From Amoebophrya sp. A120 (taxonomy: Eukaryota; Protista; Dinoflagellata), in contig CAJINV010000018.1 in the NCBI GenBank assembly GCA_905178155.1, positions 1,158,609 to 1,222,608 of the forward strand: 64,000 nucleotides of DNA, read 5' to 3'. A model generated the notes under the pieces. That model made no database searches, was not told the origin of the DNA, and was given only the letters and a program-made list of their open reading frames with translations. Below, piece by piece: positions 2,773 through 5,700 of the stretch; the first letter of the stretch is position 1, and every line of letters starts with the position of its first letter. A program made the translations under genes and the position numbers.

Positions 2773-5700
2773 TTAGCAGCACCCGCAGGTTTTCGGCTTG
2801 ATTTCGCCGCAGCTCTTGATGATGATCGATTCGACCGTATCCTGTGTAAAAATGTCCCCACCCCATAGTTAAGTTGGGATCTCTGCAACACAGATCCAGG
2901 AGTTTTGGACGCCACGCATGACAAGTTGCAACCCTTCGTGTAGTGCAGGTTAGCAAGGACAGCCGCATTACAAATCGAGATACGTATCCTGTTTACAGCA
3001 TTACGAATTCCAAAACACGACTGGAAATGCCCATCATCGGGATACGCATCACAAGTGTTCTTGTCGTTGCAAATCTGCATGACAACTCGGGGGTGGGGAT
3101 GTTTTTACATAGGATAGACCGGCTTGTCACCCGCCGCTGTTTCGGCCTGCTCCACCAGCTCCAAAACGTCAAACCCATCGACCACTTCGCCGAACTATCA
3201 AATGTAAAAATGTCTGGGTCTGGAAGATGGTAAATCTGAAGCATACAAAAATCTGTGTTGCAAGAGTGCCAAAAGCTGTCCACTTTCGACCAAGTTTGGA
3301 GGGAGTTTCTCATGCAGGATAGGCATGGCAGAGACCTCGCAGAGTCTGTCATGCTAAGTCCCGCATTCCAGGCCTCATGGGCCATGGAGAATCTGCATGA
3401 CAAGTTTACACTCTCCCAGACCCAGACACTTTTGCACTTGATACAAACACGCAGTGCCGGCCGTCCAGGTGCGGGGTGTCCTTGAAAGTGACGAAAAACT
3501 GCGACCCGTTGGTGTTCGGCCCCGCGTTGGCCATGGACAGCATACCGCGCTTCACGTGCTGGTCGATCGTTAAATTTTCGTCGTTGAACTTTTCTCCGTA
3601 AATCGACTCGCCCCCGGTGCCTGTTGTAGAAGTTCACGGTCGTTGTAATGTAAAAATTCTTTCCACATTGGAATTCTACCGGCATGATGTTGAGGAGGCT
3701 GCAAAAGCAAAACATAGACGTAGACCTCCGCAGTGAAACTAAAATCATCAAATATTCCAATACCGTCCCCCCGTGTGAAATCTCCTCCCTGCATCATGAA
3801 TCCCGGAATCACCCGGTGGAATGCGCACCCCTCGTAGGTCAGCTTCTGCCCGTTGTATCAGAAGGAAAAATCCCACCTCCCAAGGAGGTTTCTGATGCTG
3901 GATTTGCGTACACAAATCAGGTTTGTCTTGCAGAAAGTGCTCTGCGGCATTTTCTGAGCCGTTTTGGGTATGCAGAAGGCTAGCTCAATTGCGCATGGCA
4001 AACAGGTTTGCAGTAGTCGAAAGCGCATGACAGACTGGCTGCCAAATGCACCACATGGCTTCCGTTGCCCTATAAGCAGGACAAAGACGATTTGTGACCA
4101 CAAATCAGCATCAGAAATATCCATTTTGATATGGGGAGGGGGCGTTTTTCACTGTAATACGTTGGTCGCCGTCTTTTCTGACTCGCCCGTGCACAGTTGC
4201 CGAAAGTTTTCCGCGGTTTTTATGCAAAGAAAAAAGTGTTACAGTTACACATTGTGTTGCAGGCCAAGCAAGACAGACAAGCTCTGTCATGCACAAAATG
4301 CTTTTAAGCCTCATTTGGTACGTGTTTTCCCTTATGATCTCTGCATTGCAAGTCTTTCCTCCCATGCAGAGAAAATCTGTGTTGCTAAATTGACAACAAA
4401 TGTGTAACTGTAACACTTTTTTCGTGGGATAGTTTTCGGGACAATGTCGCTGTACAGGCGCATGGTGATGCGCTTCAACGTATTCTGAGCAAAAACGTCC
4501 CCACCCCAGGGTTGTCATGCAAATGCGCAGTCACAGGAACATTTGTAATGCGCAGCTCGATGAGAGGCATTACCAATCATGTCTTGGACTTTGTAATGCT
4601 GTGAACGGGATGAGAAAATGGCTTTCTCATGCAACATCTCTTGCCAATCAGCACTACACTTCTGCAGAGGGCAACTTGTTATGCATAGCTCCCAAAACTT
4701 GGAGATTTGTGTTGCTAGATTCCCAACGTGACTATGGGGTGGGGACGTTTTTGCTTAGAATAGAACTCCAAGGGGTCGGACTTGTCGCCGAACTTATGGA
4801 ACTGTCAGGATCGAAATTGACAAAGTCGAAAAATTTGTAATGCATAAAATGTAGGGCATGTATGGCCTGTGGTGGGGAGCAGGCAAAAGAGACCGACTGC
4901 AAGCCTGTTCTGGGAAAGGCGATGCGTTGCCAGAGTAGCATCACAGGAGCAGTCTTCTTTGCCCCAACAGCATGACAGACTGAATTTTGGCGCTCCCGAA
5001 ATTTTTCTTGCATTACTTAGAAACTGGGTTCGAACTGGAATCCCTTTTGTGCATGACAAATTATTTCGATTTTGTCAATTTCGATTCTGACTCTTCCATA
5101 GAACTGCACGTCAAAGTAGACCTGCGGAAGCTTTTCCAGGTCCTCACTGGTTCGGACCTTCGCGACCTTGATATCCTCCTTCTCGTTGTACATCGACTTC
5201 TTGAACATGTTGCCGAACTGGGACTTTTGCTTTTTCTTGAACTCCTCCTCCTTCTTTTTGCACTCGTCAAACTTTTTCCGGATCTCCGCGTTCTTCGGGT
5301 CGTGCTGCAAAGCTTGCTTCAAATCGAACTTGGCCTGGATCGTATCAAAAATTTGTATGTAAATGTATTTTGTATTCAAATCATTCAGCATCAGCTCGGA
5401 ACTTTTTTACACGAATTTCATCGACAAATAACACGATACACCAACTTCTGCCCGGGAACTCTGCCGGTCGGCTCGGCAGTAGTACTTACAGCATCTCAGT
5501 AGAGCAATGATGGCGCGGCGGCTCATGAATGAAGTACAGCTTCAATTAAAATTTTCATGTTTGCGCGTGAAGAAACTCCTTCTCCTATACCTGTGCAAAT
5601 TCTTCTTTTGCAATGTACGCCACCGCACGTCGGAACCACGCCTTGGAGTTGGTTTCCTCAATTTCCAAAGCTTTGTTCGCGTTCAACAGTGCGTTGTCCC

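Follow-up and report, generated by a model that had tools for sequence, protein, structure and literature searches.

How is an insertion removed precisely from a message when no placement of its boundaries yields a canonical splice site? This question is raised by a 211-nt element in a cyclophilin gene of Amoebophrya sp. A120, which an earlier note on this DNA had described as an introner that lacks a GT-AG or GC-AG register and as a sign that two splicing grammars coexist in single transcripts. We analyzed the element within the window, i.e. the whole 64-kb stretch of DNA (64,000 nucleotides), three exons of which were 100% identical to the A120 proteins P0034, P0121, and P0175 (Table 1). Elements of this class have been published. 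In the consulted portions of the study of Amoebophrya A120 and A25 (Farhat et al., 2021; PMC7789003), more than 60% of introns are non-canonical, A120 introners have inverted repeats that start with TAT followed by a run of A, direct repeats of 3-5 nt, a length of ~240 nt, and a hairpin, and 'heterogeneous genes' carry both intron types. The focal element is the same in kind, with TAT ends and a 5-nt repeat, being repeated in the genome and absent from contigs that are probably RNA.

Table 1. Features of the window (positions count from its first letter).
Feature	Position	Strand	Evidence
FKBP-TPR-cyclophilin gene, annotated protein P0034, 491 aa; 8 element introns and 4 GT-AG introns	2773..7245	-	exon 100% identical to A120 protein
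Neighboring element, unequal target copies GTTTG/GTTCG	3196..3443	-	joint 3190->3444, 1 ambiguous letter; at least 4 nt of upstream copy kept in contigs
GT-AG intron of the same transcript as the focal element	3621..3763	-	joint 3619->3763
AAAAC target copy, downstream	4216..4220	-	5-nt duplication
Predicted focal intron, common register, 216 nt, CT...AA	4217..4432	-	216-nt skip in 4/4 runs; register inferred from neighbors, ambiguous at the focal junction itself
Focal element, non-autonomous, terminal inverted repeats TAT...ATA, 211 nt	4221..4431	-	hairpin, z -7.9
AAAAC target copy, upstream	4432..4436	-	5-nt duplication
Neighboring element, unequal target copies AGTTC/CGTTG	4481..4762	-	joint 4476->4764, 3 ambiguous letters; 1-4 nt of upstream copy kept in contigs
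DRC7 gene, P0121; 13 element junctions, 8 GT-AG, 1 left out	19396..28828	-	exon 100% identical to A120 protein
DRC7 elements with unequal target copies	20928, 22971, 26973, 28485	-	four elements
Second element, 209 nt, target TCCTT; predicted intron 27285-27498, TT...CT	27289..27497	-	register tally and annotated protein
Coatomer alpha gene, P0175; 13 element junctions, 9 GT-AG including 48475-48378; informative elements 46331, 48532, 48957	43478..52324	-	exon 100% identical to A120 protein

The focal element is skipped together with one target copy

The minus strand at the focal site reads GTCCCG AAAAC TAT...ATA AAAAC CGCGG, and the AAAAC target and TAT...ATA element are thus found on the coding strand as previously read. 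The terminal inverted repeats (TATCCCACGAAAAAA / TATGCAAAGAAAAAA) match the A120 definition (TAT, ~7 variable bases, and at least three A), and folding of the region gave a long terminal hairpin (z = -7.9). No coding role was seen for the element, and a related copy lies at 26027-26237. Depending on where in the repeat the junction is placed, six registers are possible (AA-TA, AA-AA, AA-AA, AC-AA, CT-AA, and TA-AC). None of them starts with G or ends with AG, in agreement with the earlier note, and none provides either the GT/GC donor and AG acceptor of U2-type introns or the AT-AC or GT-AG ends of U12-type introns.

Contigs from four sequence runs (X1-X4; one study and at most two samples, labeled as RNA by guess) carried the joint 4215->4432 in 4/4 runs, with 216 nt skipped and five ambiguous letters. 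Removal of these 216 nt, i.e. of the element plus 5 nt, restores VPKTAENF as the note had claimed; this sequence is conserved in 5/6 aligned homologues, and KTAENF or RTAENF is present in 6/6 of them (with the variants VPRTAENF and ITPKTAENF). Close by, a GT is available at position 4442 and an AG ends at each of 4182 and 4178, but the joint found was the one above, and the annotated protein P0034 is intact. The idea that the true junction uses a nearby GT/AG pair, or that the gene is dead, is contradicted by both results and retains next to no probability. Contig joints and annotation instead point to a transposon-derived intron, lost with one target copy and devoid of canonical dinucleotides. 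Furthermore, the contig with the 216-nt skip also skips five other elements, each with 5 additional nt, as well as the GT-AG intron 3763-3621. The 465 letters between two anchored pieces equal the summed exon length. From the raw-read RNA run X8 there were 150 matches to the window, all of them partial, and no joint. Very short exons (~15-45 nt) were seen between adjoining introns at 4763-4789, 27269-27284, and 25968-26026, the first of which, 27 nt long, was present in the contigs with the focal skip.

Element introns and GT-AG introns in the same genes

The second element of the earlier note, at 27289-27497 in the DRC7 gene, was likewise non-canonical. Its six registers (TC-TA, CC-AT, CT-TC, TT-CC, TT-CT, and TA-TT) again include no G-starting or AG-ending one, and WRAGDSFDF spans it in the annotated protein P0121 and in two relatives, so that AGDSFD is rebuilt; this junction was judged from the annotated protein and the relatives rather than from a sequence-run joint. 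The element folds as a long terminal hairpin (z = -6.5).

Mapping of P0034, P0121, and P0175 gave 56 junctions, comprising 34 element junctions, 21 GT-AG junctions, and a single DRC7 junction of 531 nt that contains element 21297 and was left out of the counts. All 34 placed non-GT-AG junctions correspond to a TAT...ATA element plus exactly 5 nt. The GT-AG intron cited in the note as an example (48408-48475) turned out to belong to a third gene, coatomer alpha, and to be 30 nt off, because the annotated protein needs intron 48475-48378, with its acceptor at 48378, and the orthologue alignment agrees. The point it was meant to illustrate is nevertheless borne out by the four GT-AG introns of the cyclophilin gene.

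The GT donors of the three genes begin with GTA in 17/21 cases (GTAT in 6 and GTAC in 5), and only 4/21 have G at +5. The 3' ends of these 21 introns look A/C-rich and not pyrimidine-rich. The scarcity of G+5 and the A/C-rich 3' ends are fitting for altered U1 and U2AF recognition. Two GT-AG introns of DRC7 contain repeats: 22010-22433 holds a family-1 element that has TGT in place of TAT at one end, as would be expected of ends free to decay when removal no longer depends on them, and a 932-nt intron (20492-19561) contains a short palindromic repeat array at 19830-20207.

A probable common register for element introns

Where the two target copies of an element differ, the number of target bases retained from the upstream copy (k) can be read from the spliced sequence. 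Twelve elements have unequal copies. For three of them the difference is synonymous and k is left unconstrained; this holds for 43693 in its annotated protein and for 17813 and 32938 in their likely frames, with neither a protein nor a run covering the latter two. The register therefore rests on nine informative junctions, two from the sequence runs (one study, with the RNA label guessed) and seven from annotation. At 3196-3443 the contigs limit k to 4-5 and at 4481-4762, where the annotated P0034 reads ELKR, to 1-4; thus k = 4 if the rule is uniform. Annotation gave k = 2-4 (28485), 1-4 (26973), 3-5 (22971), and 2-4 (20928) in DRC7, and 4-5 (48957), 3-5 (48532), and 1-5 (46331) in coatomer alpha. 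Orthologues have N and not T at 48957 in 6/7 cases, I and not V at 48532 in 7/7, and no Pro at 20928 in 8/8, and k = 0-1 at 28485 would create a stop.

Only k = 4 is common to all nine intervals, with 4 as the upper limit in four cases and as the lower limit in two. If k were independent and uniform, any common value would arise with a chance of 0.016, and all seven annotation cases would include 4 with a chance of 0.012. Element introns thus likely share one register, consisting of one target base, TAT...ATA, and four target bases, which predicts CT-AA ends at the focal element and TT-CT at 27289-27497. The nine junctions may also be compatible with a mix of registers centered on 4. RNA-level removal with a variable cut inside the repeat would be in keeping with the Fig. 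3 legend of PMC7789003, in which the splice sites are called variable and the border unknown. Each junction does yield an interval only, and contigs drop minor forms; however, the single shared value and the limits on both of its sides make such variability improbable. The fixed register is a refinement not found in the literature searched, whereas the element class itself is already published.

The common register places T at +2 and A at +3, exactly where the host GT donors have them, although TAT could be fixed by transposition alone. T also occupies +2 in 9/9 predominant A120 and 9/9 predominant A25 motifs in Table S4 of PMC7789003, motifs that are affected by how the aligner places ambiguous junctions. 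This bears on the claim of two splicing grammars in single transcripts. Both intron kinds are indeed absent from the same contig, but separate grammars do not follow, because U+2 and, mostly, A+3 are common to both in the predicted register and one relaxed machinery could read both. On the sequence evidence, the two grammars may be one.

Elements across the window and in related contigs

With a perfect 5-nt duplication and terminal pairing of 13/20 or better as criteria, the window contained 53 elements of any starting triplet, 44 of which start with TAT, compared to 0-1 TAT-starting matches in each of 10 Markov-3 simulations; thus the excess is not due to chance. Eight further window elements have one or two differences between their target copies, and four more came from protein mapping. 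No GT/GC-AG option exists in any register in 49/52 elements; the three exceptions are 14222-14500, 24474-24629, and 33218-33524, two of which have it at k = 3. At k = 4 the target composition showed no enrichment of G or AG (GT-AG in 1/52), and no 3' signal beyond the hairpin was found among the window elements. GATA is present at the 3' end in 12/16 discordant elements (P = 0.077), and we claim no asymmetry of the ends.

Related copies lie in the same orientation in 72 pairs and in opposite orientation in 73, i.e. there is no orientation bias. This bears on the possibility that, in the life stage that transcribes these genes, the elements are cut out of the DNA itself and the mRNA is made from a template without them. 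Some room for such DNA excision is left by the guessed RNA label of runs X1-X4 and by the fact that, with genomic run X5 included, the joints considered are the best 15 of 547. However, the contig with the focal skip also lacks a GT-AG intron, and run X5 contigs continue from exon into flanking element at a depth of 41-46 (e.g. 3417-3914). Furthermore, the 4+1 split would follow transcription whichever way round a copy lies, which a symmetric DNA reaction is not expected to do. Removal from RNA is favored on these grounds, and we regard DNA excision as very improbable.

A scan for element-end motifs in a contig set of a metagenome collection yielded 144 loci (L001-L144), 80 of which, among those listed, share one accession prefix. 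Window copies are matched over at least 200 nt by 124/144 loci, with a median identity of 85% and a maximum of 96%. Among 113 paired elements, the target duplication is perfect over 5 nt in 93 cases and 6 nt long in none. Eight rows have variant ends, including two with 5' TAC, four with 3' GTA, ACA, ATC, or ATG, and one with 5' AAT; L008 among them looks spurious, and L136 (5' AAT) lies in a weak coding context. Single changes at each base of the 3' ATA suggest that this triplet is loose, and the TAC 5' ends resemble the host GTAC donors (5/21). Variant ends also occur in the window: the coding-strand 3' end is ATC in an element at ~58057-58307, whose target copies differ at one base and which is apparently in a coding frame, and the coding-strand 5' end is TAC at 53961-54239, which has a perfect CTTTC duplication.

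A proposed hairpin-guided route of removal

The explanation that we favor, with a probability of about 0.55, is that introner-class miniature inverted-repeat elements are cut from pre-mRNA at a fixed offset by a hairpin-guided, relaxed U2-type spliceosome. What was observed of this is the structure of the element, the skipping of 216 nt in contigs that are probably RNA, and the restoration of the protein. A DDE transposase or integrase acting in trans would insert the element with its 5-nt target duplication. The terminal hairpin would hold both ends together and serve as a ruler for the 3' cut, and the cuts would fall one base before TAT and four bases after ATA, in the same register in all copies. 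Within a donor resembling GUAU, TAT would then fill +2 to +4, leaving +1 and the acceptor dinucleotide free, and the relaxed spliceosome would remove the intron with the hairpin in place of end definition. With the upstream copy contributing four target bases and the downstream copy one, the original message would be restored wherever in an exon, and in whichever orientation, an element inserts; and since copies occur in both orientations, the removal signal must sit in the symmetric ends. The identity of the machinery is our best guess.

Several candidate features found no support. A fixed branch A at -7 is at odds with the variable 3' triplet, L003 ending in GTA in a well-scoring frame. A group I or II self-splicing intron is not indicated either, as an Rfam scan of the window gave 0 matches at the gathering score and the element is a simple 211-nt hairpin. 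Introns cut by the tRNA endonuclease have a bulge-helix-bulge structure, in which a 4-bp exon-intron central helix lies between two bulges. Central pairing at the element junctions averaged 1.21 of 4 compared to 1.39 for shuffled sequences (n = 56), so that the tRNA-type endonuclease raised in the earlier note found no support in this pairing test.

A clearly less probable route keeps the fixed register and assigns removal to a non-spliceosomal or second divergent machinery, such as a structure-guided endonuclease with a ligase; this is the true 'two grammars' case. It would be in line with the freedom of both terminal dinucleotides, the balanced orientations, the strong hairpins, and the changes tolerated at each base of the 3' ATA. 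The consulted portions of PMC7789003 report 83/89 spliceosomal proteins together with U2, U4, U5, and U6 in A120, no U1, and no minor spliceosome or minor snRNAs. The missing U1 fits the non-spliceosomal route, whereas the nearly complete spliceosomal protein set speaks against it, as do the pairing test and the T+2 and A+3 shared with host donors, even if a transposase alone could fix TAT. A similar route is debated for euglenid nonconventional introns, which are released as circles and whose ends overhang the terminal stem by a short stretch (PMC11282704, in the part consulted).

We prefer the relaxed U2-type spliceosome over such a euglenid-like route, as has been argued for the introns of Fritillaria (10.1101/2025.08.15.670264, in the part consulted). 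More tentatively, and at somewhat less than even odds, the same ruler rule (one base, TAT...ATA, four bases) would hold for tens of thousands of hairpin introns of A120 in either orientation, with the first, last, and penultimate bases free and a single machine that dispenses with G+1, an AG acceptor, and U1 pairing while keeping U+2 and A+3. If so, this machine would render insertions of these transposons silent wherever in an exon they occur. With a fixed register, the 5' and 3' ends of each intron can be predicted exactly, so that lariat and circle searches, analysis of U6/U5 pairing, and re-annotation become straightforward. Should a spliceosome be responsible, it would manage with hardly any of the terminal dinucleotide rules; otherwise there would be, alongside that of euglenids, a second nuclear route of transposon-enabled splicing.

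Relation to other transposon-derived introns

As far as the consulted portions of the sources go, PMC11282704, PMC11453091, PMC12130899, and PMC9860276 restate or extend the published class and give no register, and no other paper devoted to the A120 introner register was found in the literature searched, which did not extend to subscription papers. PMC7789003 has a variable or unknown position where we propose a single register. The introners of Aureococcus, Micromonas, and Polarella are likewise non-autonomous elements with inverted repeats, and they too draw their splice boundaries from the target duplication (PMC9860276); however, those of Aureococcus have canonical motifs (PMC7789003), in contrast to most of the window elements.

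Introns of Fritillaria borealis are also transposon-derived, with inverted repeats and target duplications, and occur as non-GT-AG beside GT-AG introns (PMC11282704; 10.1101/2025.08.15.670264). They are attributed to a modified U2 spliceosome (10.1101/2025.08.15.670264) and prefer AG-AC and AG-AT ends, whereas only +2 to +4 are fixed in the window elements. The euglenid introns share with our elements a terminal stem, target-like repeats, free dinucleotides, and coexistence with GT-AG introns, and a non-spliceosomal route is debated for them (PMC11282704). Their stem motif is CAG/CTG at +4..6 and -8..-6, compared to TAT/ATA at +2..4 and -7..-5 here, and excised circles have been shown for them.

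With regard to the mobilizing enzyme, IS3EU/GingerRoot DNA transposons provide a lead, since TA..TA termini are common to them and the window elements, although their duplications are usually 6 bp and not 5 bp (PMC10045372, in the part consulted). In the part of PMC12130899 consulted, integrase-like frames are reported together with inverted ends for one family of A120 introners.

A 569-nt element at 54300-54868, about twice the usual length and possibly nested, lies 60 nt from the element at 53961-54239. Guessing the strand of elements by GC3 was confounded by antisense frames; a codon model, trained on three of the same genes, picked the minus strand for 51/52 elements. Minus-strand frames at 16005-17822, interrupted by elements at 16393 and 17813, appear to resemble the spliceosomal protein Sad1/USP39.
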